Shown here piece by piece: positions 9,172 to 26,456 of a stretch of 56,923 nt of DNA. The notes under the pieces are model-generated. The model worked only from the letters and a program-made list of their open reading frames with translations. It had not been told where the DNA came from and searched no databases. The first letter of the stretch is position 1, and each line of letters starts with the position of its first letter. A program made the position numbers and the translations under genes. The stretch spans positions 1-56,923 of the forward strand of contig JAKLID010000001.1 in NCBI GenBank assembly GCA_022709795.1, given 5' to 3'. This stretch comes from Patescibacteria group bacterium (GTDB taxonomy: Bacteria > Patescibacteriota > Patescibacteriia > UBA2196 > GWA2-42-15).

Positions 9172-9312
9172 TTAAACACTAAGCCTGGTTCTCTTCTTGT
9201 GGCGGCGGCGAGTAATGACTTTGGCGCCATTTTTGGTGGACATGCGGACCAAAAAGCCGTGAGTTTTAGCTCTCTTTCTTTTTTTGGGCTGATATGTTCT
9301 CTTGGTAGCCAT
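9172..9312 (-). CDS. rpmH: 50S ribosomal protein L34 (absent from the supplied ORF track, too short)
   Basis: Manual translation of the minus strand gives [46 protein letters not shown] followed by a stop. Confidence 0.92.
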
Positions 9313-9405
9313 AAATAGAGGATAATTTATAATTTAAAGCAAAAATCAATTTTAGAATAACACAAAAATTAAAACAAATCAAAGGGCAAAGATTTTAATA
9401 ACTTT

Positions 9406-9476
9406 TTATCAACATATACACCACAATATCCACACCTTGTACACTTTTTATTAATTTGCTGTGCCTTTGTGTATAA
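9406..9476. promoter_or_regulatory. DnaA-box-like sites in the rpmH/dnaA divergent intergenic region
   Basis: TTATCAACA (9406-9414), ATATCCACA (9426-9434) and TGTGTATAA (reverse complement TTATACACA, 9468-9476). Each differs from TTATCCACA at one position. Confidence 0.5.
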
Positions 9477-9539
9477 GTGTCGAATGTGCTATTATTGAGG
9501 TAGAAAAAATAAAAAAGATAAATAATTTCCTAGAAAAAT

Positions 9540-10910
9540 ATGACCAAAGACGAATTGTGGCAGGCCGTGCTCGGAGAACTGGAATTAAGTCTCTCAAAGG
9601 CCAATTTTATTACTTGGTTTAAAAATACTTTTATTATTGCCGAAGAAAATGAACAGGTAATTATTGGGGTGCCAAATCTTTTTACCCAGGCCTGGTTTGA
9701 AAAGAAATATCATGATTTAATCATAAAAACCCTGAAAAAAATCACCAATAATCGGGTAAAAAATATTATTTATAAAATAGAGGTTCACAAGCCAGATGGG
9801 CTAATGTTAGCCGAAAAAATAGAGGTTACTTTTAATCAGCCGACTAGGGAAGTAGAATTTTTAGCTAGCACCAATGAGTCTCACGGTTTAAACCCGAAAT
9901 ATACCTTTGAAAAATTTATCGTGGGTAAAAATAATGAGTTGGCTCATGCCGCAGCCAAGGCAATCAGCGAAAAACCAGGGGAAATTTACAATCCGCTCTT
10001 CCTTTATGGCGGAGTGGGGTTGGGTAAGACCCACTTATTACAAGCAGTCGGCCATGTTTTATTACTAAAAAACCCAAAAATCAAGGTTTTGTACACAACC
10101 TGTGAAAAATTTACTAATGATTTTGTCCAGGCGATCAGGACTGGCAAAACCAAGGCTTTTCAGGACAAATACCGCGATGTGGATCTTTTGATTATAGATG
10201 ATATCCAGTTTATGGAAGGAAAAGAACAGACCCAGGAACAGTTTTTCCATACTTTTAATGATTTATACCAAAAAAACAAGCAAATCGTGATTTCTTCCGA
10301 CCGGCCACCCAAAGCGATTCCCACCCTGGAGGATCGCTTGCGCTCCAGATTTGAATGCGGGATGATCGCGGATATTGGCGAGCCGGATCTGGAGACCAGA
10401 ACCGCGATTTTGGGGGCAAAACTAGCGGAAAAGAACTATTTTCTGTCAGAAGAGATTATAAATCACATTGCTTCAACGATTCAGAGTAATATCCGCGAGC
10501 TGGAAGGGGCATTAAACCGAATAATTGCCCACCATGAACTAAAAAAGGAAACACCTACCCTGGAATCGGTAAAAGCGATTGTTTCTGGGTTGGTAAATCT
10601 ACCTAGAAAGGGCTCTATCGCGCCAAAATTAATAATTCAAACCGTGTCGGAATATTTTAGTATTAGTATAAATGATATTATCGGCAGTTGTAGAAAAAAA
10701 GAATTGGTGGTGCCAAGACAAATTATTATGTATTTTATGAGAGAAGAGCTGGATGCCTCATTTCCTAATATTGGCAATGAGCTCGGGGGGAGAGACCATA
10801 CCACAGCTATGCACGCCCATACAAAAATTAAAAACAAATTAATTGACGATGATAAACTAAGGCAAGATATAACAATATTAAAACAAAAGATATTTAATAG
10901 CGCAGTCTAA
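9540..10910 (+). CDS. dnaA: Chromosomal replication initiator DnaA
   Basis: AAA+ Walker A LFLYGGVGLGKTHLL, Walker B LLIIDDIQF, sensor SNIRELEGAL, and the C-terminal DNA-binding helix GGRDHTTAMHA. Confidence 0.97.
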   Translation: MTKDELWQAVLGELELSLSKANFITWFKNTFIIAEENEQVIIGVPNLFTQAWFEKKYHDLIIKTLKKITNNRVKNIIYKIEVHKPDGLMLAEKIEVTFNQPTREVEFLASTNESHGLNPKYTFEKFIVGKNNELAHAAAKAISEKPGEIYNPLFLYGGVGLGKTHLLQAVGHVLLLKNPKIKVLYTTCEKFTNDFVQAIRTGKTKAFQDKYRDVDLLIIDDIQFMEGKEQTQEQFFHTFNDLYQKNKQIVISSDRPPKAIPTLEDRLRSRFECGMIADIGEPDLETRTAILGAKLAEKNYFLSEEIINHIASTIQSNIRELEGALNRIIAHHELKKETPTLESVKAIVSGLVNLPRKGSIAPKLIIQTVSEYFSISINDIIGSCRKKELVVPRQIIMYFMREELDASFPNIGNELGGRDHTTAMHAHTKIKNKLIDDDKLRQDITILKQKIFNSAV

Positions 10911-11141
10911 GTCGGGAAGTGGTGGAAAGAGTGGTGGAAAAAATGTTTAATAAGAACAAAAGACAGATTGATAATTAGTTATCCGGTGATTGTGCCCACA
11001 AAACAGAGAGAGTTAAGCACTACAAATTAAGGTTTTAATTATAATTAAAACCAATAAAAATAAGAAAAAATATAATTATCAACTTTTACACAGCTATTAA
11101 TAATAATATGAGTTATATATAGCAATTAATTATTTATTATT
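10911..11141. promoter_or_regulatory. Candidate oriC (dnaA-dnaN intergenic region with DnaA-box-like sites and an AT-rich unwinding region)
   Basis: TTATCCGGT, TTATCAACT and TTTTACACA box-like 9-mers are followed by a nearly pure A/T tract (attaataataatatgagttatatatagcaattaattatttattatt) just before dnaN. Confidence 0.45.
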
Positions 11142-12248
11142 ATGAAAATAACTTGCACTCAAGAAAATTTAATTAAGGGCTTGAATATAGTCGCGCACAT
11201 TGCTGGAAAGAATATTAGTTTACCTATTTTGAATAATATTTTAATTAAAGTAGAAGACGGGGTGATAAAACTAATGAGCACTAATTTGGATATTGGGATA
11301 AAAACCACTATTCGCGGTAAAATAGAAAAAGGCGGTGAGACAACAGTGGGGGCAAAGATTTTGACTGATTACGTGGCGCTTTTGGCTGGGGGCAATGTGA
11401 CGATGGAAATAGTAGATAATAATTTGCTAATTAAGACTGAAAATCAGGAGACGTCTATTCGCTGTCAGGGGGCGGAAGAATACCCGGTAATTCCCTGGAT
11501 TGAGGCGACAAGTGGGGTGAGTTTGGAGGCAAAAATTCTAAAAGAGGTGTTGGGGCAGGTTATAAATAGCGCCTCATATGAGGATATTCGGCCGGAATTG
11601 TCAGGTGTTTTGATGGCAGCAGAGAAGGACACACTTGTGATGGCAGCAACAGATAGCTATCGTCTGGCTGAAAAAAAGATTAAAATCACCAAAAATAACC
11701 TAAATCAAGAAAAAGCCTATAAAATAATACCACTTAGGGTATTGCAAGAGGTGCTGCGGGTGTGCGGCGAGGGAGAGGAGCGGGTGGAAATCAACTTTAG
11801 TGACAGCCAGGTGGTTTTCAACTTTCAGGAGACCACTATTATGTCCAGACTAATCGAGGGTAACTATCCGGACTATAAAGAAATTATTCCCAAAGAATGG
11901 AAGACACGGGTGGTGGTAGACAAGACAGGGTTAATTTCACAAGTGAAGGTAGCAAGTTTGTTTTCCCGGGCTGGTATTAATGATGTGTTTCTAGAATTTA
12001 ATAAGGATAATAAGATTATTATTTCGGCGGCCAATGTCCAATATGGAGAAAATAAATCCAAAATAGAGGCCACAGTAGAAGGGGAAAACAATAGTGCGGT
12101 TTTTAATTATAAATATTTACTGGACGGCTTGCAAAATATTAATCATAAGAAAATAGTCATAGAAGTGAATTCGGCTGATATGCCGGTGATTTTGCGGCCG
12201 GAGGGGGGCGATGATTATTTATATTTGATAATGCCAATCAGGAGATAG
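11142..12248 (+). CDS. dnaN: DNA polymerase III beta sliding clamp
   Basis: Position after dnaA, ~368 aa, and typical clamp motifs (MKITCTQENLIKGLNIV, ATDSYRLAEKK, LIEGNYPDYKEIIP, PVILRP...YLIMPIR). Confidence 0.95.
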   Translation: MKITCTQENLIKGLNIVAHIAGKNISLPILNNILIKVEDGVIKLMSTNLDIGIKTTIRGKIEKGGETTVGAKILTDYVALLAGGNVTMEIVDNNLLIKTENQETSIRCQGAEEYPVIPWIEATSGVSLEAKILKEVLGQVINSASYEDIRPELSGVLMAAEKDTLVMAATDSYRLAEKKIKITKNNLNQEKAYKIIPLRVLQEVLRVCGEGEERVEINFSDSQVVFNFQETTIMSRLIEGNYPDYKEIIPKEWKTRVVVDKTGLISQVKVASLFSRAGINDVFLEFNKDNKIIISAANVQYGENKSKIEATVEGENNSAVFNYKYLLDGLQNINHKKIVIEVNSADMPVILRPEGGDDYLYLIMPIRR

Positions 12249-13030: not shown

Positions 13031-15253
13031 TTATTTTTTAATATATTCTTTGGAGTCTTCCAGTTTGATACTGATCAGTTTGGAGATACCATCTTCACCC
13101 ATAGTGACGCCATAGAGCAGCTTGGCTTTTTCCATAGTGGCGCGGTTGTGGGTGATGACAATAAATTGTGTTTTGTGGGAGAGGTCGGAGAGAATTTGAG
13201 CGAAGCGAAGAGAATTGGATTCATCGAGAGCGGCATCAACTTCGTCCAAGACAACAAAGGGTGCGGGATTGGAGGAAATAATAGCGCAGATCAGAGCAAT
13301 ACTCGTCAGGGCGCGTTCGCCGCCCGAGAGGATGCTGATGGATTTTAATTTTTTGCCGGGCGGGGTGGCGTAGATTTCAATACCGCTGTAGCCGTCTTTG
13401 GATTTTTCTTGAAAGAAATTGGTGGCCGGAGAATTGTCAGCAAGAGATTCTTCCTCGGCTGGCTTGAAATCTTCCTTGATCAGGGAGAGCTCTGCTTGAC
13501 CGCCGTTGAAGAGAATTTTAAAATATTTTTGGAAATAAGTATTAATCTCGTTAAAAGATTCTGACATTTGTTTTTTGATAATCTGTTCCAAATCAGTAAT
13601 TACTTTTTTGAGGGAAGCAATTGTCTGGTTTAGATCATTGGTCTGAGCGGTCAAAAAATCATAACGCGCCTGAACCCGCTGATACTCTGTTTCCACTTCC
13701 GGATCTAGGCCGCCAATGATTTCTAGTTGGCCCTTGAGCCGGTTTATTTTATCTAGGATGGAGAAATTTTGTGCCTGGTCACCCTGGGGCAGGGAAGCGG
13801 TTCGGAGCACTTCGAGGGAGCCCAGTTCCTGAATAATTTCTTGTTTCAAATCAAAGCGTTTGGTTTCGACTCTGGCCAGAGAGATTTTGACTTCATTGAG
13901 CTGATTGTTGGAAAGAGAAAAAGCCTGCTGGGCGGCTTGATATTTTTGCTGGGTTTGCCAGAGGGCAGAGCGTTTGGCCTCATCTTCAGAGAGGAGGTGC
14001 TGAATTTTTGTCTGTAGTTCTCCGGCCTGATGATCCAGGTCGGCGATTTTTTTATCCAAAGCTCGCAGTTCCTGGGGCGGTTCAGGTTTGTTTGCCACAG
14101 CGTCTTCGGCGCGCAAATAGGGCTTGATGAAGAGTAGGAGTGATTTTACGCGGTCATTCAGATCAGCCAGAAGTATTTTGAAACTAGACGCTGCCAAGCC
14201 TCGCCCCAAATCAGCCAAAGCTTTTTGGCCCAGGGAATTGATATTTTCAATTTGTTGGTTGAGCTCAGTTATTTTATCCAAAGAGAGGGTTTTGGTATTG
14301 GTATGGGGCCGGGTTTTTTCAACGAGGGATGATTTCATGGTCCAGAGTTCTTCTCTGGTGCGCATTTTCTTATCCAAAACAGCCTGCTGCTCCAGCCGCA
14401 ATTTTTCTATTTCTTGATTTAAGCCGCTATTTTTGACAATATTATCCAGCTCAGCCTCTAATTTTTTCCACTGATCCTCGTGGATTTTTTTATCAGCCTC
14501 AAGTTGGTTTATTTTGCTCAATTCTTGCTGGTAATCACGATCAATAGTTTGCCAGTAAGCGCTGTAATAGTTGAGGCGCAACTCATTGAGCTCAGCCTCA
14601 ATCTCCTTGCGTTTGTTGAGTTTTTTGATCTGACGAGTGAGGAGATTTAATTGGGGTTCCATTTCTTTGAGACGGATGTTGGCGGTAGTGAGGTTTTGCC
14701 AGACCTGATTGAGCTTGACAATGGTTTGATTTTTTTTGATTTGATATTGTTTGACGCCGGTGGCTTCGTCAAAAAATTCCTTGCGCTCTTCTGGGGTGGC
14801 GATGAGAAAATTATCAATCATACCCTGGCCGATGATGGCATAGGTGCGGTGGCCAAAATTGGCTTGAGTGAGGAGCAAATTAATGTCGGCGAGTTTACTT
14901 TTGCCACCATTGATCAAATACTCACTTTCGCCATTACGATAGATTTTCCTGGTAATCAAAAGGTCGCGGTAATCAATAGGCACTTTCCCGTCAGTATTAT
15001 CCAATTCCATAGAGACCTCGGCCAGACCCAGGCGGGCTTTTTTGTCAGAGCCGGAAAAGATGACATCCTCGCTTTTTTTGCCACGGAGGGTCTTGATACT
15101 TTGTTCACCCATGACCCAGCGGAGAGAGTCGGCAACATTGCTTTTGCCAGAGCCATTGGGGCCGACCACGGCAGTGATGCCACTCGTGAATTCCAGGGTG
15201 GTTTTTTTGGCAAAAGATTTGAAGCCGTTGATTTCTAGCTTTTTTAAGTACAT
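13031..15253 (-). CDS. smc: SMC-family chromosome condensation ATPase, unusually short (~740 aa), no recognisable hinge
   Basis: N-terminal head MYLKKLEINGFKSFA...VVGPNGSGKSNVADSLRWVMGEQS, C-terminal head LSGGERALTSIAL and FVVLDEVDAALD, with continuous coiled-coil-like sequence between them. The ATG at 15253 is preferred over the TTG at 15268. Confidence 0.85.
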   Translation of the reverse strand: MYLKKLEINGFKSFAKKTTLEFTSGITAVVGPNGSGKSNVADSLRWVMGEQSIKTLRGKKSEDVIFSGSDKKARLGLAEVSMELDNTDGKVPIDYRDLLITRKIYRNGESEYLINGGKSKLADINLLLTQANFGHRTYAIIGQGMIDNFLIATPEERKEFFDEATGVKQYQIKKNQTIVKLNQVWQNLTTANIRLKEMEPQLNLLTRQIKKLNKRKEIEAELNELRLNYYSAYWQTIDRDYQQELSKINQLEADKKIHEDQWKKLEAELDNIVKNSGLNQEIEKLRLEQQAVLDKKMRTREELWTMKSSLVEKTRPHTNTKTLSLDKITELNQQIENINSLGQKALADLGRGLAASSFKILLADLNDRVKSLLLFIKPYLRAEDAVANKPEPPQELRALDKKIADLDHQAGELQTKIQHLLSEDEAKRSALWQTQQKYQAAQQAFSLSNNQLNEVKISLARVETKRFDLKQEIIQELGSLEVLRTASLPQGDQAQNFSILDKINRLKGQLEIIGGLDPEVETEYQRVQARYDFLTAQTNDLNQTIASLKKVITDLEQIIKKQMSESFNEINTYFQKYFKILFNGGQAELSLIKEDFKPAEEESLADNSPATNFFQEKSKDGYSGIEIYATPPGKKLKSISILSGGERALTSIALICAIISSNPAPFVVLDEVDAALDESNSLRFAQILSDLSHKTQFIVITHNRATMEKAKLLYGVTMGEDGISKLISIKLEDSKEYIKK

Positions 15254-15445
15254 AATATAGAAACTCAAAACTCAAAATTTAAAACTCAAAAGTATTGATA
15301 AGCATAAACAAAAGAGACCGGGATGGGTCACTTTTATTATATCAGGAAAAGGGTTTTGGGCAAAAGAGAGGTGGGGTGGTAATTAATTTAATGAGTGTCG
15401 GAGTCCCTGGCGGAGACTCCGACGGGGCGGAAAAATTCAATTTCA

Positions 15446-15594: not shown

Positions 15595-16194
15595 TTATTT
15601 TATTTCAATATTTTTTACGATTTTATCAAAATCTGACTTTATTTCTGGAGTCTTTGATGTGTAGTTTGCGCTTATACGGACTATGCCACCTTTACTATTC
15701 TTAAATATGATAGCGTCTACTGTACCCACGCCATCAAATATTGAATAGGAATACTGAATTGCCGACTTTCCACCAACCGCAATGTTTTTGTATTTTGAGT
15801 TAAAACTTGATTCTGGGTTATTTTTTGCCCAATTCAACGGCGAATCATTATTTTTGTTCTCATAAGATATAATTTCAATTCCCGGAGTGTCGCCTTCAAA
15901 TTTCTTTTCACCAATCCACAAATATGCGCGCTCAACAACCTTTCCGCCCATATCTTGATTTTCATTTAAATTATACTGAGCTGGATATTCAAAACTCACA
16001 CCGATTTTTTCACTTGCAAATATCTTACTACTAACATGTTTTGACGTGGATGAAACAACTTCTTTTCTTAGTTCAGTCTCTGTTTTTTTTGATTCAGTGG
16101 TAACTGTTTTTGGGAAATTACCCTCTGAATTTGAGCAACCAGAAAGCATGATGGATGTGCTTAGTGCGAATGCGATGCAAAATTGCTTTTTCAT
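15595..16194 (-). CDS. Cassette ORF: lipoprotein of unknown function
   Basis: MKKQFCIAFALSTSIMLSGC carries a lipobox (LSGC). The start is taken at the ATG at 16194, because the upstream part of the tracked ORF lies in the repeat frame. I recognise no family. Confidence 0.7.
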   Translation of the reverse strand: MKKQFCIAFALSTSIMLSGCSNSEGNFPKTVTTESKKTETELRKEVVSSTSKHVSSKIFASEKIGVSFEYPAQYNLNENQDMGGKVVERAYLWIGEKKFEGDTPGIEIISYENKNNDSPLNWAKNNPESSFNSKYKNIAVGGKSAIQYSYSIFDGVGTVDAIIFKNSKGGIVRISANYTSKTPEIKSDFDKIVKNIEIK

Positions 16195-16263
16195 TTTGTT
16201 ATATAAAAAATAAAATACCCCCAAATAATTAACGCCGAAGGCGCAAAAACTTTTTGCTATTTC

Positions 16264-16560: not shown

Positions 16561-17703
16561 CTATTTTTTATTTTTTATCAAAATTTGTCCTCTTCCTATC
16601 CACTCAATCAACTCGTTGGCTTGGGCGTCGATATTCAAAAGAAGTTCTGGGTAGCATGGCTGCAATTCGGCGTTAAAAATCAACAACTCTTTTAATCCCC
16701 GTGCGTAGTCAAATCCTAGCTTTTCGCAATTCTGTAAAAATTTTCTTCTGAAAGGTATTAGCTTTTCTTTTCGTGAATCTGATACAACTGAAAAAGTTTT
16801 CATATCCGATACAATCCTATGAAAAACTCGCAATAATTCCATTGTAATTCGGCAGAGCTGAATATCTGAGCTATTGGTAATTTCTGAAAATTTTGTAATC
16901 AGTGGCATGATGTGATCGACCTCGTAGGCTTTGTCTGAATTGTTCACCAACATCAATAGTCTTTCTATGCCCACAACTGAAAATGACCAAAAATTTTCCC
17001 AATGAACTAAATCGACGATTGTGCCGTCCTTGTAAATTGGTCGCCACAACAAATTTTCGATTGAGGCTATATCCAATGGCTCATCCAAATTATCCGTTTT
17101 GTATAGAATTTCATTTCGATAACCCCACGCAACGGGTGGAGTGAAATTTAGAGCCAATAGAGTTGTTCTTGTTTGGTCGGGTATGAATTGTTCGTCGTTG
17201 ATTCCAAATTCTTTTGCAATCTTGATAAATGGGTCGGCTTCGAGATTTTTATCAAACTTATATTTTCCAGCAGTTATTTCTTCGGCTTTTCCGCCTGATA
17301 AATATGAAATAACGAAGCGTTGTGGCTCTAGCCCCAACTCATTTATCAAAAACTCGAAAATTTTTCTGATAGTAAAATCGGCGATGTCTTTGCGTTGCTC
17401 ATCCGTAACATCCTTTCCGCCAACAAAGCCTGACACATCAGCCATATCAAAAAGCAAAAGATGGATATCGTCCATGGCATCATTGAAGTCATTAACTCGT
17501 ATCACTTGTTGAATTGTTGAAAAGTTGTAGGCCTCAGAATTGTCTAAATAATTACCGAATTTTTCAAGAAATGGCGCCTCACCAAAACTTATGTTGAAAT
17601 TTCCAGGAAAGCCCTTGTTCACAATCAAAGAGCGAGGAATCTTTTGAACTCCTGAATATTTAGAAAAATTTTCAATTTTATTCCTTAACTCTAAATATTT
17701 CAT
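16561..17703 (-). CDS. Cassette ORF: stand-alone alanyl-tRNA-synthetase N-terminal (catalytic/tRNA-recognition) domain homolog, divergent
   Basis: By-eye collinear similarity to the AlaRS N-domain: LELRNKIENFSKYSG ~ AEIRQAFLDFFHSKG; ISFGEAPFLEKF ~ TNAGMNQFKDVF; STIQQVIRVNDF...HLLLFDMADVSGF ~ TSQRCVRAGGKHNDL...HHTFFEMLGNFSF; AWGYRNEILY ~ GPCGPCTEIFY; VVGIERLLMLV ~ GMGLERIAAVL; CRITMELLRVFHRIV ~ LRVIADHIRSCAFLI. No editing or C-Ala domains are present. Confidence 0.65.
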   Translation of the reverse strand: MKYLELRNKIENFSKYSGVQKIPRSLIVNKGFPGNFNISFGEAPFLEKFGNYLDNSEAYNFSTIQQVIRVNDFNDAMDDIHLLLFDMADVSGFVGGKDVTDEQRKDIADFTIRKIFEFLINELGLEPQRFVISYLSGGKAEEITAGKYKFDKNLEADPFIKIAKEFGINDEQFIPDQTRTTLLALNFTPPVAWGYRNEILYKTDNLDEPLDIASIENLLWRPIYKDGTIVDLVHWENFWSFSVVGIERLLMLVNNSDKAYEVDHIMPLITKFSEITNSSDIQLCRITMELLRVFHRIVSDMKTFSVVSDSRKEKLIPFRRKFLQNCEKLGFDYARGLKELLIFNAELQPCYPELLLNIDAQANELIEWIGRGQILIKNKK

Positions 17704-17829
17704 AAAAAATAAAAAATAGCCCCAAATAATCCCGCCGTAGGCGGAAAAACTTTTAATTTAAAAAATCAAATTTTCGTCTTTGTTCATTGCACGGAACCCG
17801 AAATTACCACCAAAGATGAAAAAATATTT

Positions 17830-17927
17830 CAGACAACGTTCGCGTGTATGCGATGTTTTGTGGAGCGTAGCGGAACAAAATATGGGTGGAGCGACCTTAG
17901 GAGCGTAACCGCATACACGCTGTTATA
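17830..17927. repeat. attC-like structured site 1
   Basis: AGACAAC-GTTCGC-GTGTATGCG ... CGCATACAC-GCT-GTTATAC. The architecture matches sites 2 and 3, with compensatory changes in the inner stem. Confidence 0.55.
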
Positions 17928-18124
17928 CGCTGTTCAAAAAATATTTTTCATTCAATTTCATTTTGACAGGCTTTTTATTCAATAATCATAAATTTGTTTT
18001 TTTGTTTTGGATTTTGGGCAGAGGGGTTAGGGGTGAATGCCCAAATCCAAAACTCCTTATTCTGTTTGAGGGAGGGGCAAGAGGGGAACTAAAGGGGTGA
18101 ATTGCCCCGACCGAAAACACTTCT

Positions 18125-20419
18125 TTAATCAAAATCTGTCTGATCTTTTTTATTAAAGTTATTCAGAAATAAATCAATTGCCTCTTTATTGTTTTGATAT
18201 TGCTCTGAGTTTTCTTCTTTTATTCCTTCCAGTTTTGTTTTTAACTCCTCTAAATCAAGGAAATCTGACAAACTTTTATAATTAAATCTTTTTGTAACCC
18301 TCGTGCCATAGTCACCAATAGTTTGGCTTCTGCTTTCCGAAACGAATTTAGCTATGAAGACCAGTAATTTTTGATTGGCATCACTAATTGTTTTTATGAA
18401 GTCTCCCCACTTACTATCTTTGCTCCATTCTTTCCAACGGTACAAAATGTAAAGTAAGTTTTTATGTTTCAATAAATCATCAGGGTTAGTTTCTTCGATT
18501 TTTTCAAGACATAATTTTTGTAAATCTTCAATTTTATCTTCCGGCACAACAAATTCGTCCGAATCTTTGCCCTTTTCTTTTCTTGATGACTCCAAAGAAA
18601 CTTTTTGTATTGGACCGAAGAGACCTTTGGACTGCGGTATAGCTTCTTTTAATATTTCATAATTTTTGCTTTTATCAGACTCTCTTTTTAGCAACTGATA
18701 AATTATTCTCATCAAATCCATATCTATTCCGAAATCCCACATCCCAACTTTTTCTTCGGGCAAATCATCGGAAATGTTGAAAAGTGTCTTAACTACATTC
18801 TTTGCATTATCTTGCGAAATACGAGTTTGATCACCTGTAAAATCTTGAATCCTTTGTAAAACCTTCCTGATTTTCTTTTTCTCAATGTACTCCCTAATAA
18901 TCTTTTCAAGATCTTCTGTTGAATTTGTTTTGCTTAAAATTTCCTCAATTTCAAACTGGCTTAATTCTTCCTCGTCACCACCAGGAATTAGCGTAAAGTA
19001 GCTATCAAAATTATTTGTAGCACATACCCTTAAGTTATTGCTCCAAATAGACTGCCATTCGTGTCCGTGCGTTGAATAACCGTACTGAAAAATGCCGTCA
19101 ACTTGTGGAAATAATCTTTTTAATAACTCAAGAACAGATTCTTTTATTTCGCTTGGTAGTGCATTCAACGCTTTTTCAATTTCATCTTTTCTTGGATTGT
19201 TATCCCTTGAACTTCGCTCGTTCCTATCAGTAGAAGTAAAAATCACACTTTTATCACGCATGAATAAGTAAAAATCCGGCGCAAAAATTCTAATTGCCTC
19301 AATGGCAATGAAATCTATCGGGTTTACTTCCATTATCTTACCTTGATACATCTGAGAGATATTAAATTCCAAACTGCTTGCGAACCTTTTTACATCTCGT
19401 ATGTTTTTGAAAAAATCTTTGAAACCTGAATGATAAACATTTACCCAATACGGTTCGTCTTGTCCAAAATATTTTTGTGCAGATTCAGGTAATATGCTCA
19501 AAATCCGATCTAGCTCTTTGAAAAGAAATGTGGATATTTTTGATGGTTTTGCAAAAGGCACGTTAAAATGCACTTGGACTATCTTATTCAAATAATCCTT
19601 TCCTGAAACACCAATTTGCTCTTCAAGATTTTGCTCAACAATTTTTCTATCAAAAGCCAAGAGATAAATTGTATTTGGAAAGTCTGCGTTTATCCGAATT
19701 AGTCTAAAAATTTGTTTAATTTCTGATTGATTTAGTCTATCAATATCGTCAATGACGATCACAATTTTTTTATTTCGTTCCAAAAGCTCTTTTTTTATTT
19801 CGTTTTTTAATTCTGTAATAGATTTTTTATTCACTAAATACTTCTGTTGAAAAAAATCTGACAAACCAAGCAAAAAATCTTTAAATAATCCAACCAAAAA
19901 TAAAACGAGACCTATCCCAAAAAATGTATATTTAATCCAGTTTGCCGGTATCTCTAACCATTGTATTATTTGGCTGGACGAAATACCGATTAAGCCCAAG
20001 CCCAGAAGAACTTTTGATGAAAGAATACTTAAAGTTTCCTTTTTGGGTGTAAGACTTAGTAATTTAGAGTACAGCTTCAGTTTTTCTGCAATCTTTTTAT
20101 CTTTTGATGAGCCATGTTTAATCTCAAGTTCTTTGGCTATTTCGTTAAAAAAGTGAGTACTGAGATTTTTTTCTTCGGAAAAGCCCCACGGATTAAATCC
20201 AATAATTGTTGGTTTATCGTCGTTTTTTGTGGCCTCAATGTACTCATTGGCTAGGTTAATAACTGACGATTTTCCAGATCCCCATTCACCATAAATCGCA
20301 ATAACAAGACTTTCTTTTTCTTTCCAATCCAAAAGTGCTTTCCCAAGATGTTGAGAAAATCTTTTTCTGCTTAGGAAATCATCTTTTTCGGTTTCGATTG
20401 GTTTGTCGTAAATAAACAT
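18125..20419 (-). CDS. KAP-family P-loop NTPase with inserted transmembrane helices
   Basis: Walker A IAIYGEWGSGKSSVINL. Two hydrophobic helices (VLLGLGLIGISSSQII, FFGIGLVLFLVGLF) lie between Walker A and Walker B (IVIVIDDIDRL), the hallmark KAP topology. The start codon is 2 nt after the res stop. Confidence 0.9.
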   Translation of the reverse strand: MFIYDKPIETEKDDFLSRKRFSQHLGKALLDWKEKESLVIAIYGEWGSGKSSVINLANEYIEATKNDDKPTIIGFNPWGFSEEKNLSTHFFNEIAKELEIKHGSSKDKKIAEKLKLYSKLLSLTPKKETLSILSSKVLLGLGLIGISSSQIIQWLEIPANWIKYTFFGIGLVLFLVGLFKDFLLGLSDFFQQKYLVNKKSITELKNEIKKELLERNKKIVIVIDDIDRLNQSEIKQIFRLIRINADFPNTIYLLAFDRKIVEQNLEEQIGVSGKDYLNKIVQVHFNVPFAKPSKISTFLFKELDRILSILPESAQKYFGQDEPYWVNVYHSGFKDFFKNIRDVKRFASSLEFNISQMYQGKIMEVNPIDFIAIEAIRIFAPDFYLFMRDKSVIFTSTDRNERSSRDNNPRKDEIEKALNALPSEIKESVLELLKRLFPQVDGIFQYGYSTHGHEWQSIWSNNLRVCATNNFDSYFTLIPGGDEEELSQFEIEEILSKTNSTEDLEKIIREYIEKKKIRKVLQRIQDFTGDQTRISQDNAKNVVKTLFNISDDLPEEKVGMWDFGIDMDLMRIIYQLLKRESDKSKNYEILKEAIPQSKGLFGPIQKVSLESSRKEKGKDSDEFVVPEDKIEDLQKLCLEKIEETNPDDLLKHKNLLYILYRWKEWSKDSKWGDFIKTISDANQKLLVFIAKFVSESRSQTIGDYGTRVTKRFNYKSLSDFLDLEELKTKLEGIKEENSEQYQNNKEAIDLFLNNFNKKDQTDFD

Positions 20420-20421
20420 AG

Positions 20422-23097
20422 CTAGTTTTTAAATGCCTCCGCCAACTGTTTAAAGCTCGTCGGTTTGTACTTGTCCCATTCTTCCTGCTTCACATAAAGC
20501 ATTTTGTAGGCGATTTTTTTCTGTCTTTCGCTTGCGTCCTCGCACCATTGCCCCAACCTCTTTATCTTTTCAATATCGTCTAAATCTTCTCGTCCTTTTG
20601 TTTCCACAATATAAATCGTTTTATTGTCCGTTTTTACGAAAAAGTCGGGATAATAACTGGAAATTGCCCCGCTCGCGTTTTTATAATCAATTTTGAAATG
20701 AATTTCATAATAATTTTTAGCGAAAGAAATCACATCGTCAGCGCCTTCTAAAAAGTCGGCAAATTCAAGTTCAAAATCGCTATCCCCGACAATTTTATTG
20801 AATACGCTCTTTTTGGGTAGCAAATATTTTTTATCGGTAACAACAAACGGTCTTGCACTGCTTATTTTGAGATAATTTTTTATTTCCGTGTCGCCAACAT
20901 CTTGCACGGTCAGATTATTTATTTCCTTTTTGAATGTTTCCACGATAGTTTTTACCGCTTCCAACTCGGATAAATTTCTCAAAATATTTGCGTCATTCAG
21001 ATCAACTTTTTCGCTGAATAAATCGTTGCCGATAAATTCTTTTACTTTGCCAAAAAGTATATCGTAGCACCCAAAAAGGCGCAGTTCTTTCATTATTCTT
21101 TGCACAAAAAATCCGACAACGCTTTGATAATTTGGTTCAACAGTACTATTCAAAATCGTTGTGTGATGAAGTTTGTCATCAATTACTTCCTTAAAAACAA
21201 TCTCTTTCTTTTCTTCCTCTGAAAATTGTTTTATTGAGATTTTTTCGTGCTTAAATCCGGCAACATTCAATAAATTAAGATTTTTATATTCTCTTTGTAT
21301 TCTCGGCGTTAAAACCGGCAATTCAATGTCTAAATTTTCAATGTCTTTTTTTACATTCTGATTATCAACTTCAATAACAGTCGGTGTAATCGGCGAGCCG
21401 GAACGATCCATTTTTCGTTTTTCTAGCTCAACGCCTTCCGCCTTGATTGATTCCACAAACTCCATAAAGGCGGGCGTGCCGATAACGCTCACATATTCCT
21501 CAACATCTTGACCAAAAAACATTCGACGAAGACCGCGACCCAATGTCTGCTCCGGCAATATCTTTGAATCAGAGCCATACGGGCGTAAACCAACGATTGT
21601 CGTTACATTTTTGACATCCCAACCCTCTTTAAGCATTAAAACGGAAACTATCACCTTGTAGGGGCTTTCCATGCTGTCTATCTCATTAGCTTTCTTTCTC
21701 AAATCTTGCAGTTCTTTTTCCTTTTTTCCGGTAACTGTTTCCGATATTTCACCGCTCTTGTTTGTATGAATGGTTAAAACCGCGCCTTTCAATTGCGGAT
21801 AACTTTTTTCCAAAAACTCCGCCACATCGTCGCAATTTTTTGTGTCGTCCGTCATTATGAAAAGAATCGATTTTTTGCCGGTCGGCTCAAGTTCCTTGTA
21901 TGTTTTTCCCCATTCTTCAACTCCTAGCCGGATGTAGTCCTCGTATTTTTCAGAAAATATTGAGCTTTGTTTTTCTTGCAATTTCGCTCGGCTCGCCTGA
22001 TCCGGCAAAACCGGATTTTTTACCACACCCTGATGTATTGCTTCAACCAAAGGATAATCAGAAACGGTTTGCACAAAAATTTCCCCACGATTATTTTTTG
22101 GCGTAGCCGTAACATCAATTTGCAAAGCTAATTTTTTGCCCTTTTGCAATAATCTGTTGTGGATATCTTCAATAGATTTAAACCACGCCATTTTTGGATC
22201 GTGGATATGGTGGGCTTCGTCGTTGATAACCATTAACTCATCAACATCGCGGACTATTTCGCCCAAATCAATTTTTGAATCATTGGTTTTGCCGACAACC
22301 TTGTCGCCCAAAAAATAATCTGATGTATCTTCATCTTCAAAACTCGCTTCGTTGATACTACCTTCATAAACTCTATGGATGTTAGTCAGAAAAATATTTC
22401 CCGATTTTGAAATCGTGCCAACTTCGTCCTGTAAATGTAGTTTGATTTGAAAATCATCTTGCCAATTTTGCCCACTATATCCGTTATCCGGCAAAATCGG
22501 ATCTTCGTAAAATATTTTCAATCCTTCAAAATCGGTTTTAATTCTATCTAAAACGATAATGTTCGGCGTGATAAGCAAGAAGTTTTTAGAAAGTTCTGAG
22601 TTTTCCTCGTAGAGTTTGTGAAAATATGACCAAGCCAAGAGCAAGCTCATTACTTTTGTTTTTCCGCTTCCTGTTGCCATTTTAATCACAAAGCGGAGCC
22701 AGTCCTCGGTAAACATATTCGGGCTTACCCGACCCAATTTATCAAACTTGATCAAATCGTATTTATTGGCAACTTTCTCAACATCATAAATCCAAATAAT
22801 CGTTTCTACCGCTTCTCGCTGGGCGTAATAATATTGAAAGGCAACACTTGTGCCGTCTTTGGCAAAAATTGTGTGCGGTTCTTTAAACCACCAATTCAAG
22901 AGTGCTTTTGAAGTTTCGCTCGCGCCTTCGTAGTTGTTTTTTCGCCACTCAGCTACTTTTTCCCGAAGTTCCGGCACAAAAGGTGGCAAAAGTTTTTCAT
23001 AACCTTCTTTGCGCAAATCTTCATCAGCCGGAAACCACCTGATTGACGGATCGAGTATTTGGAATTTATCTTTGGGAAAATTTTTGTGTAATGCCAT
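20422..23097 (-). CDS. res: Type III restriction enzyme Res subunit (SF2 DEAH helicase plus C-terminal PD-(D/E)xK nuclease)
   Basis: Motif I KMATGSGKTKV, motif II VINDEAHH, motif VI LPEQTLGRGLRR, and C-terminal YYPDFFVK...IYIVETKG. The start is set at the ATG at 23097, 4 nt after the mod stop; the longer tracked ORF overlaps mod. Confidence 0.9.
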   Translation of the reverse strand: MALHKNFPKDKFQILDPSIRWFPADEDLRKEGYEKLLPPFVPELREKVAEWRKNNYEGASETSKALLNWWFKEPHTIFAKDGTSVAFQYYYAQREAVETIIWIYDVEKVANKYDLIKFDKLGRVSPNMFTEDWLRFVIKMATGSGKTKVMSLLLAWSYFHKLYEENSELSKNFLLITPNIIVLDRIKTDFEGLKIFYEDPILPDNGYSGQNWQDDFQIKLHLQDEVGTISKSGNIFLTNIHRVYEGSINEASFEDEDTSDYFLGDKVVGKTNDSKIDLGEIVRDVDELMVINDEAHHIHDPKMAWFKSIEDIHNRLLQKGKKLALQIDVTATPKNNRGEIFVQTVSDYPLVEAIHQGVVKNPVLPDQASRAKLQEKQSSIFSEKYEDYIRLGVEEWGKTYKELEPTGKKSILFIMTDDTKNCDDVAEFLEKSYPQLKGAVLTIHTNKSGEISETVTGKKEKELQDLRKKANEIDSMESPYKVIVSVLMLKEGWDVKNVTTIVGLRPYGSDSKILPEQTLGRGLRRMFFGQDVEEYVSVIGTPAFMEFVESIKAEGVELEKRKMDRSGSPITPTVIEVDNQNVKKDIENLDIELPVLTPRIQREYKNLNLLNVAGFKHEKISIKQFSEEEKKEIVFKEVIDDKLHHTTILNSTVEPNYQSVVGFFVQRIMKELRLFGCYDILFGKVKEFIGNDLFSEKVDLNDANILRNLSELEAVKTIVETFKKEINNLTVQDVGDTEIKNYLKISSARPFVVTDKKYLLPKKSVFNKIVGDSDFELEFADFLEGADDVISFAKNYYEIHFKIDYKNASGAISSYYPDFFVKTDNKTIYIVETKGREDLDDIEKIKRLGQWCEDASERQKKIAYKMLYVKQEEWDKYKPTSFKQLAEAFKN

Positions 23098-23101
23098 AAT
23101 A

Positions 23102-25324
23102 TTAAATATTAACCTCAATAACTTTTGTCGTATCGTTGCCGAATATGTCAATCACCTTGATTGCGATTTTCATTTTGCCTTTTGGCGCATCTTTGAAAGC
23201 TGAAGTTAGCTCAAGCGTTCGGTCTTTTTTGGTTCTGAAAGATTGCCATTCGTTTTCAAAAATATAACTTCCTGTCCATTCTTCTTTTTCTTCGCCTGTT
23301 CTTTCGTCAACTACGCGCACGATTTCTCTTTTACTTTCAAAATCAAAATCCACTGACCAATAATCAATCCAGTCCGTCCATTTTTTAGTCAATACTTCAC
23401 GCTCAATAATATCGGTGTTTTTATCTTTGGAAATTTTTATCACCTGGCCATTTTCAATGATTATTTTATTTCCGCCGGATTGTAATTTTTCTTCCACTTC
23501 GCCAGTGTTATCTTGGTTATAGAAAACCGAAAAATCGGATAGCTCAATCGCTACTTCTTTGGCGTTGCCTCGTCCGCGAATTATTGGTTTAACTTCAATG
23601 TAGGCGATATCATAAAATTTGACCTGTCCTTTTTCCACCGCTTTTTTATCAAAAACTTCGCGGGGAATGACTTTGAATTGTACATCAATGCCGAGCTTTT
23701 TGGCGCTTTCAAAATCTAGCCCCATTTCATAGTCAAATCCCAAAACATCGGCTTTGGTTATTTTCTTTTCTTTGCACTCACTGATTATTTTTTCCAGAAA
23801 ATCATTGGTAATAGGCGAATCAATTGATCCAATGGCGATTAATCTATCTCTCTTTTTTCCGACAAAAGCATTAAAAGAATCAACTGGTTCGGCTTTGTAA
23901 GCTGATAAAATAAGTTTTATAAATTCTTTTTCTTTATTTTCTCGTTGGATTCTTTTTTCTTCTTCACGCAAATTTTCATTCACAGTCAAATACTTTGCTC
24001 GTTCGTATTTACCGATGTTTAAAATCTCAAACGCCCGAAAATCCTTGCCGGCTTTTTTAAGTTCTCTCTGCACGCCAATCATTCTTTTGCGAGTAGTGTG
24101 AATAGAAAATTTGCCGACATCGGAAGCAATCCACTTTCTACCCATTTTTTCAGCGACAGCAATCGTGGTTCCTGATCCATTAAAAAAGTCTGCTACTAAA
24201 TCGCCCTCTTTTGTAGATATATCTATAATTCTTTGTAAAAGTGGCTCTGCGTTTTCTGTTGGATAACCAGTTTTGAAAGCATAGCCTGCAACATCAGTCC
24301 AGTTTGTGTCCAAGGTGTCTGTGTTTTTTGCCTTTACCCAGTATTGTAGCTTATTTGGATTGTTTGGATTTATTCGAAGCAAACCTTCTTTATACATTTT
24401 CTGTATATTGTCTTCGCTGAATTTAAAATGCTTTCCTGTAGGTGGATAAAATATTTTCCCATCAATTACTCTTTCTCTTGGTCGTCTTTCTCCGCTACTA
24501 TCATCTGAGGCACGCCAGTAGCCCGCGCGTTCATTTTCCAGTACTTTGGTAATATGTTGGAATTTTGAATTATTCTTAAAATAGACAAACAAGGAGTCGT
24601 TCGCCGTTGGCAGTGAGACTTTACCCTGTTCGGTAATATTTTTCTTTATCCTGTTAATGACAATTTCGCTCTGAAATTTATCTTTACCAAAAATCTCGTC
24701 TAACATTGCCTTGGTATAATGACCCCAATGCCAATCAATACGAAAGAAAAAAATACCATCATCAGCGAGCAAATCTTTCATTAGTTTAACTCTTTCATAA
24801 AGCATTGATAGAAAGGTGTTTCCGCCACTACCCCAAGTATTGCGATATGCAAATTCTTCAATTATAGACGGCGATTTTTGAATTGTTTCGCCTTCACCAA
24901 TTGATACTCCAATTGAATAATCTAACCCTGCACTAAATGGCGGATCAATATAAATTAGTTTTAGCCCGCCTTCTGCTTCAATTTGTTTTCGCAAAGGACC
25001 ATTTTTGAGCGATGATAAAATCAACTTATTGTCGCCCCAAATAAGTTTATTTGACCAACCCTTGATCTGTCTGCCAGAAGTATCAAATAGTGTAGTTTGT
25101 GCTGTGATTTTTTCTTCGCTTCTCGGCTCGTCAATATGCTCAATTGCCTGAAAAGGCAAAACCATATTTTCTACTTCATCAGTTTTGCCATTCCACAAAA
25201 GCTCAACCTCACGTTCGGTATCAAAAAGCAAAAACCGGTATTTTTCCGGCAATGGTTTGCCCGATTCCAAATACTTTATAACATCTCTTTTTTCGTTGTC
25301 GGTGAGGTTTAGTTTATTGCTCAT
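23102..25324 (-). CDS. mod: Type III-like N6/N4 DNA methyltransferase Mod (beta-class motif order) with ~300-aa C-terminal extension
   Basis: LIWGDNKLILSSL, catalytic motif IV LIYIDPPFSAG upstream of AdoMet motif I DFFNGSGTTIAVA, collinear with EcoP15I Mod. The extra C-terminal region ends in VIDIFGNDTTKVIEV. Confidence 0.9.
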   Translation of the reverse strand: MSNKLNLTDNEKRDVIKYLESGKPLPEKYRFLLFDTEREVELLWNGKTDEVENMVLPFQAIEHIDEPRSEEKITAQTTLFDTSGRQIKGWSNKLIWGDNKLILSSLKNGPLRKQIEAEGGLKLIYIDPPFSAGLDYSIGVSIGEGETIQKSPSIIEEFAYRNTWGSGGNTFLSMLYERVKLMKDLLADDGIFFFRIDWHWGHYTKAMLDEIFGKDKFQSEIVINRIKKNITEQGKVSLPTANDSLFVYFKNNSKFQHITKVLENERAGYWRASDDSSGERRPRERVIDGKIFYPPTGKHFKFSEDNIQKMYKEGLLRINPNNPNKLQYWVKAKNTDTLDTNWTDVAGYAFKTGYPTENAEPLLQRIIDISTKEGDLVADFFNGSGTTIAVAEKMGRKWIASDVGKFSIHTTRKRMIGVQRELKKAGKDFRAFEILNIGKYERAKYLTVNENLREEEKRIQRENKEKEFIKLILSAYKAEPVDSFNAFVGKKRDRLIAIGSIDSPITNDFLEKIISECKEKKITKADVLGFDYEMGLDFESAKKLGIDVQFKVIPREVFDKKAVEKGQVKFYDIAYIEVKPIIRGRGNAKEVAIELSDFSVFYNQDNTGEVEEKLQSGGNKIIIENGQVIKISKDKNTDIIEREVLTKKWTDWIDYWSVDFDFESKREIVRVVDERTGEEKEEWTGSYIFENEWQSFRTKKDRTLELTSAFKDAPKGKMKIAIKVIDIFGNDTTKVIEVNI

Positions 25325-25499
25325 AGTTTTTTATTACCTATTGTTATTGTATTCGTTTTCCCCTTATAAATAAATCGTTTTCGTAGCGAAGCGGAGAAAA
25401 CACCTTATACCCCTTTCTAATAAATAAAAAAACAAATTTATTCCCCTTTTTAAAAAGCCTGTCAAAATTTCTTATTATCGGAAAAATATTTTTTGAATT

Positions 25500-25577
25500 G
25501 CGTATAACTCGTTTATATGCGAAGTGTTGGCGTAATAGTGACCTTTTATTGTCTATTAGGCGAACTTCGTTGTATAA
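25500..25577. repeat. Recombinase-proximal structured site 0 (attI-like position)
   Basis: GCGTATAAC-TCGTT-TATATGCGAAGT ... ACTTCG-GTTGTAT. The left arm is the same type as the attC-like sites and the right arm is truncated. The right box overlaps a TATAAT (25573-25578) about 48 nt upstream of the recombinase ATG. Confidence 0.45.
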
Positions 25578-25625: not shown

Positions 25626-26456
25626 ATGCAAAATTTTAATTATTTGTTAAAAACAGAAGAAGAACTAAAATTGAGAAACTATAGCCGAAAAACTATAAAA
25701 AGTTATTTAGCGTGTTTACAAAAATATATTGATTTTTTAACTAAGAATTCAACGAGCATAAAAAATTTGTCATCAGAAGAAAAGGTAAAAAAGTTTTTGT
25801 TAATGCATCAAGATAGGGGCGATGCCGGACAAACCATAAATTTGTATTTAAATGCTATTAAATTTTTTTATCGCGAGATTTTAAAATCAAATGAGAAAAT
25901 TGATTTAAAGTTTGCCAAAACCAGTAAAAAATTACCAGAGGTTTTATCGCGGTTAGAAATTGAAAAAATTTTAGCCAGTATTGAAAACAAAAAACATAAA
26001 TTATTAATTGCTTTAAGTTATGGCGCGGGACTGCGGGTGAGCGAGGCAATAAATTTAAAGATTAAAGATATTGATTTAGAAGAATTAACCATTCATTTGA
26101 GAGAAGCTAAAGGCAAGAAAGATCGTTTAACTATTTTTTCAGGAAAAATTAAAAAAGATTTGCAAAGAATAATGGTTGGCAAGTCTGCCAATGATTATGT
26201 TTTCGAAAGCGAAAGACAGGGTAAATTAACAGAGAGAACAGCGCAAAAAGTTTTTTATAAGGCCTTGAAAAAAGCGGGGATAAAAAAGCCAGCTTCTTTT
26301 CATTCTCTACGGCATAGTTTTGCCACCCATTTATTGGAAAATGGCGTGGATGTGCGCTATGTGCAGGAGCTTTTGGGGCATGCGAATATCCGGACAACGC
26401 AGATTTATACCAAGGTGATAAATCCGAGTTTGAAGAATATAAAGAGCCCGCTATAA
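25626..26456 (+). CDS. Tyrosine site-specific recombinase (Xer/IntI-like, SAM-like N-domain)
   Basis: N-domain LRNYSRKTIKSYLACLQKYIDFL. Catalytic boxes GLRVSEAINL (R), KGKKDRLTIF (K), HSLRHSFATHLL (HxxR) and LLGHANIRTTQIYTKV (H...Y). The spacing between the K box and the HxxR box is Xer-sized. Confidence 0.9.
   Translation: MQNFNYLLKTEEELKLRNYSRKTIKSYLACLQKYIDFLTKNSTSIKNLSSEEKVKKFLLMHQDRGDAGQTINLYLNAIKFFYREILKSNEKIDLKFAKTSKKLPEVLSRLEIEKILASIENKKHKLLIALSYGAGLRVSEAINLKIKDIDLEELTIHLREAKGKKDRLTIFSGKIKKDLQRIMVGKSANDYVFESERQGKLTERTAQKVFYKALKKAGIKKPASFHSLRHSFATHLLENGVDVRYVQELLGHANIRTTQIYTKVINPSLKNIKSPL

Follow-up and report, generated by a model that had tools for sequence, protein, structure and literature searches.

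A Type III restriction operon with a PifA-like KAP NTPase as its last gene in a patescibacterial gene cassette

In the genome of a Patescibacteria group bacterium (GenBank assembly GCA_022709795.1), the genes mod and res of a Type III restriction-modification system are followed within a few nucleotides by a gene encoding a KAP-family P-loop NTPase. The three genes are located on contig JAKLID010000001.1, of which positions 1 to 56,923 were analyzed (the window). We consider it probable that the locus is a layered cassette, in which an autonomous Type III system and an autonomous PifA-like membrane KAP NTPase share one transcript and are moved together. This interpretation builds on the gene identities, the packing of the operon, its recurrence, the directionality of the linkage, the swap junctions and the cassette boundaries observed in the window and in a comparison set of about 180 related loci (designated L001-L183 by us), for which 160 KAP-homologue loci were gathered from representative genomes and metagenomes and more were added by exact-protein look-ups. 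The original prediction, made from the sequence of the window, had regarded the three genes as a candidate three-component defense system. Three observations speak against a dedicated Type III-KAP system of this kind: KAP proteins of 90-95% identity are found behind unrelated partners, ten contexts with close relatives of Res or Mod are devoid of KAP, and the swaps between loci occur at gene boundaries.

The mod-res-KAP operon and its proteins

The operon consists of the following genes:

23102-25324, (-) strand: mod, 740 aa, Type III beta-class N6/N4 DNA methyltransferase
20422-23097, (-) strand: res, 891 aa, superfamily 2 (SF2) helicase with a C-terminal PD-(D/E)xK nuclease, Type III restriction subunit
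18125-20419, (-) strand: KAP-family P-loop NTPase, PifA-like, 764 aa, with two inserted hydrophobic helices and a C-terminal helical region of about 410 aa

The genes are arranged head to tail on one strand in the order mod, res, KAP. The stop codon of mod (TAA, 23104-23102) is separated by 4 nt (tatt) from the ATG of res at 23097, and the stop codon of res (TAG, 20424-20422) by 2 nt (ct) from the ATG of the KAP gene at 20419. The positions of the open reading frames (ORFs) thus bear out the predicted coordinates, strand and gaps. An alternative TTG start of res at 23151 was discarded; since the homologues are of uniform length (889-896 aa), the 891-aa form starting at the ATG is supported. 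The tight packing also agrees with the proposal that the three genes form a single transcription unit. Judged from this packing, mod, res and KAP are almost certainly co-transcribed, and the translation of KAP is probably coupled to that of res across the 2-nt gap. Consensus scans of the operon for promoters and terminators gave counts no higher than those in shuffled sequence and were hence uninformative.

Mod matches PF01555 (2.3e-32) and the PADLOC profile MTase_III (1.5e-93). As predicted, its DPPF motif (residue 127) lies upstream of the FxGxG motif (FNGSG, residue 381), a motif order that identifies a beta-class enzyme with the target-recognition domain (TRD) in between, and a comparison within the family placed the variable part of the protein in the target-recognition region at about residues 215-345. 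The closest solved relatives by sequence are the Type III Mods 6k0w, 7dsu, and 4zcf (EcoP15I). The C-terminal extension of about 300 aa, to which the original prediction had drawn attention, is indeed present (about residues 420-740, some 320 aa) and contains no Pfam domain, but it is not peculiar to this locus. Since it is strongly conserved across the entire Mod family, it is a feature of this family and unrelated to KAP. The AlphaFold2 (AF2) model of Mod was poor, with a mean predicted local distance difference test score (pLDDT) of 54 that is too low for an interpretation of the C-terminal region.

Res matches PF04851 (5.8e-18) and the PADLOC profile REase_III (8e-21), while its C terminus (residues 762-874) matches the Tn7_TnsA-like_N and RE_endonuc domains. 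The helicase motifs GSGKT (residue 143), DEAH (293), and QTLGRGLR (517) as well as the C-terminal PD-(D/E)xK nuclease motif PDFFVK...VETK (817; PD-x13-ETK) were all located where they had been expected. The closest NCBIfam family, BPTD_3080, was matched with 284 bits, which is under its cut-off of 800 bits, and no match was detectable between Res and the sequences of solved structures. With a beta-class Mod, a Res that combines an SF2 helicase with a PD-(D/E)xK nuclease, and mod directly upstream of res, the pair belongs to the Type III systems, the hallmarks of which are ATP-dependent cleavage at unmodified, inversely oriented sites and hemimethylation by Mod. On the strength of this family membership, the first module of the cassette would act as a classical two-subunit enzyme, in which Mod would methylate one strand of a short asymmetric site and Mod-Res would cut unmodified DNA using ATP. 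EcoP15I and EcoP1I show the same order of mod and res, a beta-class Mod with the TRD between motifs IV and I, and a Res with SF2 and PD-(D/E)xK domains; in contrast to these two systems, the family found in the window carries variable extra genes between mod and res and after res.

The protein encoded by the third gene is, by its sequence, a full-length PifA homologue. It matches PF07693 over residues 18-351 (5.8e-49; 167.3 bits, cut-off 20), and its best PADLOC match is PifA (2.1e-86). When plasmids were searched with KAP by tblastn, only distant KAP proteins were found and PifA of the F plasmid did not surface; the F pifA gene was fetched by accession and then compared directly. BLASTP aligned the two proteins with 29% identity across the N-terminal 289 aa, and hhalign with a profile of 25 KAP homologues gave a probability of 99.6 over 645 columns (query 11-739, PifA 14-721). 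Walker A (GEWGSGKS) is located at residue 44 and Walker B (VIVIDD) at residue 220. Strong hydrophobicity is confined to two segments between these motifs (about 129-150 and 161-190), and the predicted topology is thus the one proposed originally, with two transmembrane helices inserted between Walker A and B. The AF2 model of KAP (mean pLDDT 80.6) shows long helices at 127-154 and 161-195 and a C-terminal half that is all-helical. A Foldseek comparison of this model with the PDB returned weak matches of the AAA+/STAND type (RdrA, ORC/Cdc6, and Avs4; E ~4e-4, TM <0.3) and nothing that points to a role of the C-terminal effector region, and a profile search of PDB sequences with KAP gave no match. 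An identification as QatA was rejected, as NF041923 scored 54.6 bits against a cut-off of 600 and the neighbors are res and a different cassette instead of QatB/C/D.

PifA of the F plasmid, which excludes phage T7, shares with the KAP protein of the window the KAP P-loop domain and a long helical C-terminal region, and both are encoded by the last gene of a short operon, 1-2 nt after the upstream gene. However, F pifA follows the repressor gene pifC, whereas the KAP gene follows res, and a PADLOC profile search found no PifC-type match among the proteins of the operon. Furthermore, F PifA does not possess hydrophobic helices between Walker A and B, its maximal hydropathy over 19 aa being 1.27 as compared to 2.16 in the KAP protein of the window.

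Partners of KAP and exchange at gene boundaries

The identical order mod-res-KAP with the same 4-nt and 2-nt gaps was found in the independent metagenome contigs L175, L176, and L177. The unit is also present in L083, L082, and L004, and in the first of these Res, KAP, and Mod are 97, 80, and 72% identical to the proteins of the window, respectively. Other Type III systems are followed by KAP in L016, L030, and L104, and in L154 a KAP gene whose product is 31% identical starts 1 nt behind the gene of a Res that is 73% identical. Near-identical KAPs (90-95% protein identity) sit behind unrelated partners, including Type III, Type II, Dcm/Vsr, and DpnI systems. The partners other than Type III systems were:

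L081 (KAP 95%) and L164 (KAP 83%): D12 methyltransferase and a 363-aa ORF, 1-nt gap
L001 (KAP 92%): N6_N4 methyltransferase, 2-nt gap
L002 (KAP 91%): Dcm and Vsr
L003 and L090 (KAP 90%): DpnI
L005 (more distant member of the clade): ApaLI restriction system
L017 and L093 (more distant): Eco57I/MmeI-type enzymes
L084 and L119 (more distant): PLD-Snf2 helicase and Eco57I-type methyltransferase
L102 and L045 (more distant): Type I HsdR / HsdS
L161 (more distant): AbiLi/AbiLii
L031 (more distant): PDC-S18
L118 (more distant): STAND NTPase
L163, L006, and L007: KAP without defense partner

The spacing between KAP and the upstream gene is 1-10 nt in many loci. Non-defense genes also occur in the upstream position, namely a histidine kinase gene in L013 and genes of small enzymes in L163. 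In four further loci (L147, L158, L160, and L156), where KAP is only about 30% identical, genes for a PLD-Snf2-like protein of about 1040 aa and an Eco57I-like methyltransferase of 1260-1380 aa overlap into KAP on the same strand, and a protein of about 1330 aa is encoded 10-60 nt after KAP; these loci may represent a distinct multi-gene system with a distant KAP.

To quantify the linkage, close KAP homologues were defined by an identity of at least 40%, which yielded 54 loci after deduplication; in 42 of these, KAP was preceded by one or more ORFs. A scan with Pfam of the two genes that precede KAP (74 proteins in aggregate) returned N6_N4_Mtase (6), Eco57I (5), ResIII (5), N6_Mtase (4), and MmeI_Mtase (3), along with ApaLI, SwaI, NgoFVII, and C5 methyltransferase. 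For the two genes that follow KAP (70 proteins), the 25 most frequent families included no restriction family, and housekeeping and miscellaneous genes were found instead. A BLAST comparison of each locus with verified restriction seeds, which served as a lower-bound count only beside the Pfam scan, was positive upstream of the close homologues in 18/42 loci (43%) and downstream in 2/39 (5%; Fisher p = 7e-5). The same comparison for KAP homologues below 40% identity gave 11/83 upstream and 2/75 downstream, a much weaker linkage. Since restriction families dominate upstream of the close KAP homologues and are scarce downstream, the adjacency is not fortuitous. A fortuitous adjacency had first been suggested by a tblastn search of 80 genome loci with KAP homologues, in which Res and Mod of the window found very few matches; this explanation was dropped because the upstream Pfam scans revealed other types of restriction systems. 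KAP is therefore linked to restriction operons in general and not to Type III systems in particular, and the linkage is directional with KAP as the last gene. Of the conserved linkage between KAP and Type III genes that the original prediction had made its test, the non-random association with restriction and the recurrence of mod-res-KAP stand, while the specificity for Type III does not.

The same picture was obtained from the side of the restriction enzyme. A search with Res found at least 8000 homologous clusters, and the best 120 clusters listed are 78-97% identical and come from Patescibacteria, Gracilibacteria, Rikenellaceae, Desulfatiglans, and others. KAP was absent from 10 contexts anchored on a Res or Mod of 91-97% identity. 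Nothing related to defense follows res in L169-172, which lie on a Tn3-bearing element, or in L173/L174, L167/L168, and L180, and an unannotated 269-aa ORF is located there in L181/L182. In L178/L179 and L183, the position after res is occupied by the gene of a 758-aa AAA_13 ATPase (PADLOC PDC-S06, 1e-175, with a weak PrrC match of 5.5e-10), and in L166 by genes for a 1061-aa Ppl-like ATPase and a DUF2130 protein. Like KAP, these alternative third genes are tightly packed, as they overlap res or start 2 nt after it. Several loci contain insertions between mod and res, which encode Bro-N, NYN and KTSC, DUF3800, or an OLD-like AAA_15/TOPRIM ATPase. The Type III family to which mod and res of the window belong thus has two variable positions, the mod/res interval and the position after res. 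Res is 97% identical to that of the window both in L083, where it is linked to KAP, and in L183, where it is not, and no features of Res or Mod peculiar to the KAP-linked copies were found. As to the chromosomal location of the relatives, the mod-res system lies between mreB and mreC in L180 and between dnaB and rpoB in L173.

The junctions between shared and unshared DNA coincide with gene or cassette boundaries. The homology between the window and L175/L176 extends from 25439 to 17932 and ends 2 nt short of the attC-like site described below, in line with the original claim that the operon behaves as one cassette. The homology to L178 has the same left boundary and ends at the stop codon of res, whereas L001, L002, and L090 are homologous to the window only from 1 nt before the ATG of KAP to 6 nt past its stop codon. 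L081 has a 95-nt leader and KAP in common with the window, with a different restriction system in between, and L166 has kept mod-res and the 3' trailer, with the Ppl-like gene and DUF2130 instead of KAP. A conserved 5' region of its own is not found at KAP. These clean swaps at gene boundaries identify mod-res and KAP as separable modules and the position behind res as a swap slot.

Interpretation of the pairing

In the layered cassette that we favor, the second module would be a single-gene PifA-family KAP NTPase that is anchored in the membrane via the two helices inserted in its P-loop domain and produced from the mod-res transcript. As PifA, Tmn, and stand-alone KAP proteins suggest by analogy, it would most likely serve as an independent second line of defense: a phage cue would activate the NTPase, leading to a breakdown of the cell envelope or of the energy state or to some other block of phage replication, and phages that escape restriction would be caught. 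The pairing would result from module shuffling, by which the KAP ORF has repeatedly been placed straight behind restriction and other defense operons, and in relatives of this Type III system the position behind res is occupied by alternative NTPase defense genes. The entire unit would move as one attC-bounded cassette beside an Xer/IntI-like recombinase. The Pif system of F acts by abortive exclusion, which is triggered by gp1.2 or gp10 of T7 and accompanied by membrane leakage. Since KAP is a homologue of PifA, the suggestion that the third gene adds a layer of abortive infection fits the data.

Restriction enzymes and KAP/PifA-type NTPases are known defense modules, and mixed defenses in one locus are common. 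KAP NTPases were described as single-gene anti-phage defenses in Enterococcus faecalis, where both Walker B and the C-terminal region are required (PMC13552941), and Tmn is a transmembrane P-loop NTPase that acts as a single-gene defense in synergy with neighboring ATPase-containing systems (bioRxiv 10.1101/2022.08.21.504612), its action proceeding through plasmolysis (PMC13001434). According to their described architecture, the E. faecalis protein (EF_KAP) and Tmn resemble the KAP protein of the window in that all are membrane P-loop NTPases with a C-terminal region of several hundred residues without known domain. EF_KAP and Tmn are single-gene modules located beside other defense systems and were studied as separate genes, whereas KAP of the window is the coupled last gene of a restriction operon.

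Several points weigh against the layered cassette. The anti-phage activity, the mechanism and the independent action ascribed to KAP and its clade are extrapolated from analogous proteins. The mechanism of PifA may not be transferable, since F PifA lacks the hydrophobic insertion, and the effector mode of KAP is uncertain, since abortive infection was reported not to be the mode of action of EF_KAP (PMC13552941). As to the linkage, the BLAST tally is tilted to the upstream side because its seeds were taken from upstream genes, while the Pfam scan is unbiased but yields aggregate counts and not counts per locus. Moreover, the upstream bias, the 1-10 nt coupling, and at least three independent Type III-KAP junctions (e.g., in L154) suggest selection for the pairing, which would leave room for functional cross-talk.

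Such cross-talk might resemble the relationship between PrrC and EcoprrI or between Tmn and Gabija. The suicide NTPase PrrC is masked by its cognate restriction enzyme EcoprrI and released by anti-restriction factors. KAP would likewise be coupled to the upstream restriction enzyme, kept latent or tuned by active restriction or by a generic consequence of it, and would be set off by a phage that inhibits or escapes restriction, leading to abortive infection at the membrane level. The directional enrichment of same-strand restriction genes ahead of close KAP homologues and the short coupling gaps in many loci are consistent with this explanation, as are the independent Type III-KAP junctions of L154, L016, L030, and L104 and the persistence of the pairing in L081, where the restriction system was exchanged inside the same leader/KAP/trailer frame. 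It is also in keeping with PrrC-EcoprrI and RloC, where an NTPase-driven back-up gene is part of the restriction operon, that KAP follows res after 2 nt and that the very position of KAP is taken by a PrrC-related AAA_13 ATPase in sister cassettes, and the synergy of Tmn with ATPase-containing neighbors (bioRxiv 10.1101/2022.08.21.504612) provides a further parallel. However, the KAP protein of the window differs from PrrC and RloC in being a membrane NTPase without HEPN or anticodon-nuclease domain, and near-identical KAPs are combined with partners of unrelated structure (Type II, III, IIM, Dcm/Vsr, and AbiL). Some close homologues are without any defense partner (L163, L006, and L007), and most Res homologues work without KAP. 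Since KAP is so promiscuous, masking by the restriction enzyme appears unlikely; with partners that are unrelated or absent, a specific protein-protein guard is improbable as well and only a generic cue could serve. Overall, we regard a functional coupling of KAP to restriction as unlikely, although it retains appreciable weight.

A related view, to which we give slightly more credence but which is likewise tentative, is that the KAP clade consists of specialized riders that are selected as the promoterless last gene of restriction operons. They would follow the logic of PrrC with a membrane effector and provide a fail-safe upon evasion or inhibition of restriction, and the slot after res would be a swap position for NTPase suicide modules (KAP, PDC-S06, or Ppl-like) that are shuffled as attC-bounded cassettes by an Xer-like recombinase. 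A promoterless passenger could also come to lie at the 3' ends of cassettes and operons by hitch-hiking alone, simply because restriction operons are common there. While the missing conserved 5' region of KAP, its occurrence behind non-defense genes (L013 and L163), and the much weaker restriction linkage of the distant homologues (11/83) would fit such a passenger, the close clade shows the 43% versus 5% asymmetry of restriction genes, its downstream neighbors are housekeeping or miscellaneous genes, and several of its further partners are other defense systems (AbiL, PDC-S18, STAND, and PDC-M36A). Pure hitch-hiking is thus very unlikely in our view. Even less credible is a structural role, in which KAP would tether or assemble Mod-Res at the membrane as part of an obligate three-subunit enzyme. 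This possibility, which the original prediction had raised as membrane tethering, could draw on the tight packing of the operon and on the idea of KAP NTPases as organizers of membrane-associated complexes (Aravind et al. 2004, as related in PMC13552941). It is largely refuted by the comparative data, as Res proteins of 91-97% identity are normally KAP-less, KAPs of 90-95% identity stand behind unrelated enzymes, the junctions lie exactly at ORF boundaries, and the Res proteins of L083 and L183 bear no mark of the presence or absence of KAP. It is not plausible that a single conserved KAP would dock to enzymes as different as these.

Neither a Type III system with KAP, for which the original prediction knew of no description, nor the pattern of restriction-KAP operons was found in the literature searched. 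What is new is the preference of one KAP clade for the 3'-terminal, tightly coupled position in many unrelated restriction operons, the exchange of modules precisely at ORF boundaries, and the presence, in an abundant Type III family, of a third position at which different NTPase defense genes are readily swapped. With a clonable size of about 7.5 kb, the locus offers a test bed for asking whether the effects of restriction and membrane defense are simply additive or whether the two communicate, and for finding the trigger of KAP NTPases.

The integron-like cassette platform

The operon is embedded in a cassette array with the following elements:

25626-26456, (+) strand: divergent tyrosine recombinase, Xer/IntI-like, 276 aa, PF00589 3.4e-43
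25502-25576, (-) strand: attI/attC-like site that separates the recombinase gene from the cassette, with GTTATAC (25508-25502) as R'
25325-25440, (-) strand: cassette leader upstream of mod, with the hairpin GTTTTCTCCGCTTCGCTACGAAAAC (25401-25377) flanked by GGGGTATAAGG and TATAAGGGGAAAAC
18004-18120, (-) strand: 3' trailer of two hairpins with a conserved long loop similar to ATTCACCCCTTTAGTTCCCCTCT, RNA fold -36.4 kcal/mol, z = -3.6
17826-17930, (-) strand: attC-like site closing the mod-res-KAP cassette, R'' GCGTATAAC, L'' GCGTGTATGCG, L' CGCATACACGC, R' GTTGTCT

The recombinase passes the cut-off of NF040815 "XerA/integron integrase" (223 bits, cut-off 220), whereas its match to the integron integrase family TIGR02249 is under the cut-off (219.8 bits, cut-off 265) and falls into two pieces. 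Residues 7-183 align with positions 2-177 of the TIGR02249 profile and, in PRK15417, residues 197-276 align with 248-327, with about 70 positions of the IntI insertion being skipped. Judged from these alignments, the enzyme is devoid of the IntI-specific additional domain. A homologue with 69% DNA identity is encoded at the same position in L178.

Three cassettes on the (-) strand follow the attI-like site, namely mod-res-KAP, a 380-aa ORF (16561-17703), and a 209-aa ORF (15595-16224), and they are closed by attC-like sites at 17930-17826, 16445-16258, and 15531-15440, respectively. The sites, which were identified by reading the sequences, form at each cassette end an imperfect palindrome R''-L''...L'-R' finishing with GTTRTCY-GAAAT. 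The site behind KAP belongs to repeat family D7, and the right half of the site at 25502-25576 resembles the right halves of those at the three cassette ends. The same design is found in L081, L166, and L178, where cassettes are flanked by homologous sites, and in L178 copies of one such site are present on both sides of the mod-res-PDC-S06 unit. When four sites (two of the window, one each of L166 and L178) were folded as single-stranded DNA, the L''/L' arms paired in all of them; the z-scores of three sites were significant (-2.9 to -4.2), while that of the site at 17930-17826 was not (z = -1.05), with 31/200 shuffled sequences folding at least as well.

Integron gene cassettes that encode defense systems are known (bioRxiv 10.1101/2024.07.02.601686). 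In common with them, the window has a divergent tyrosine recombinase, ORFs in one orientation, putative sites of the R''-L''...L'-R' type (GTTRYCY), and a defense cargo that forms one cassette. It differs from them in a recombinase without the IntI insertion, a cassette of about 7.6 kb with three genes, and conserved leader and trailer hairpins. By these sequence features, the platform is integron-like rather than a canonical integron, and such arrays with non-canonical recombinases deserve attention as carriers of multi-gene defense cassettes in candidate-phyla bacteria.

The leader forms the left homology boundary common to L175, L176, L178, and L081. The same leader heads the different restriction system of L081 and other cassettes in L166 and L178. 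It lies between an attC-like site, which it follows at a distance of about 60 nt, and the first ORF, at about 1600-1680 in L081, 30-120 in L175, and 1437-1520 in L178, and at the 3' ends of L166 and L178. Presumably it represents the promoter or 5' untranslated region of the operon, and it may function as a promoter, an attenuator, or a regulatory RNA. A trailer of one or two hairpins was also found in L161 (10296-10420), L166 (9442-9580), L175 (7350-7470), and L178 (8740-8810). Its loops of 17-21 nt are conserved (ATTCACCCCTTTAGTTCCCCTCT), while the stems vary in a compensatory manner, e.g., GGATTTGGGC/GCCCAAAATCC versus GGGTGGCGGGC/GCCCACCACCC. A scan of the window with Rfam detected the 23S rRNA only, and the hairpins of leader and trailer match no known RNA family.

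The cassette platform lies a few kb from dnaA/dnaN (9540-12248). Directly after its last attC-like site, an SMC homologue of 745 aa is encoded (13031-15268), which passes the bacterial SMC equivalog model with 631 bits in two pieces; given this length and the split match, its coiled coil and hinge are apparently largely missing. In L178, a gene for an RVT_1 reverse transcriptase is located beside a bAvd gene (9236-10612), immediately beyond the attC-like sites at the end of the mod-res-PDC-S06 cassette, and looks like part of a diversity-generating retroelement. The 23S rRNA gene of the window (53630-56923) is cut by the window end. Since its 3294 nt cover only model positions 1-2083, it appears to contain insertions of about 1.2 kb, and repeat families D2 and D3 (53779-54679) are located within it; rRNA genes with inserted elements are a typical feature of candidate-phyla bacteria. 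At the other end of the window, an ORF of 1979 aa (129-6068) contains internal repeats with a length of about 69 nt and 60 nt, which are cysteine-rich and correspond to repeat families D4 and D9.

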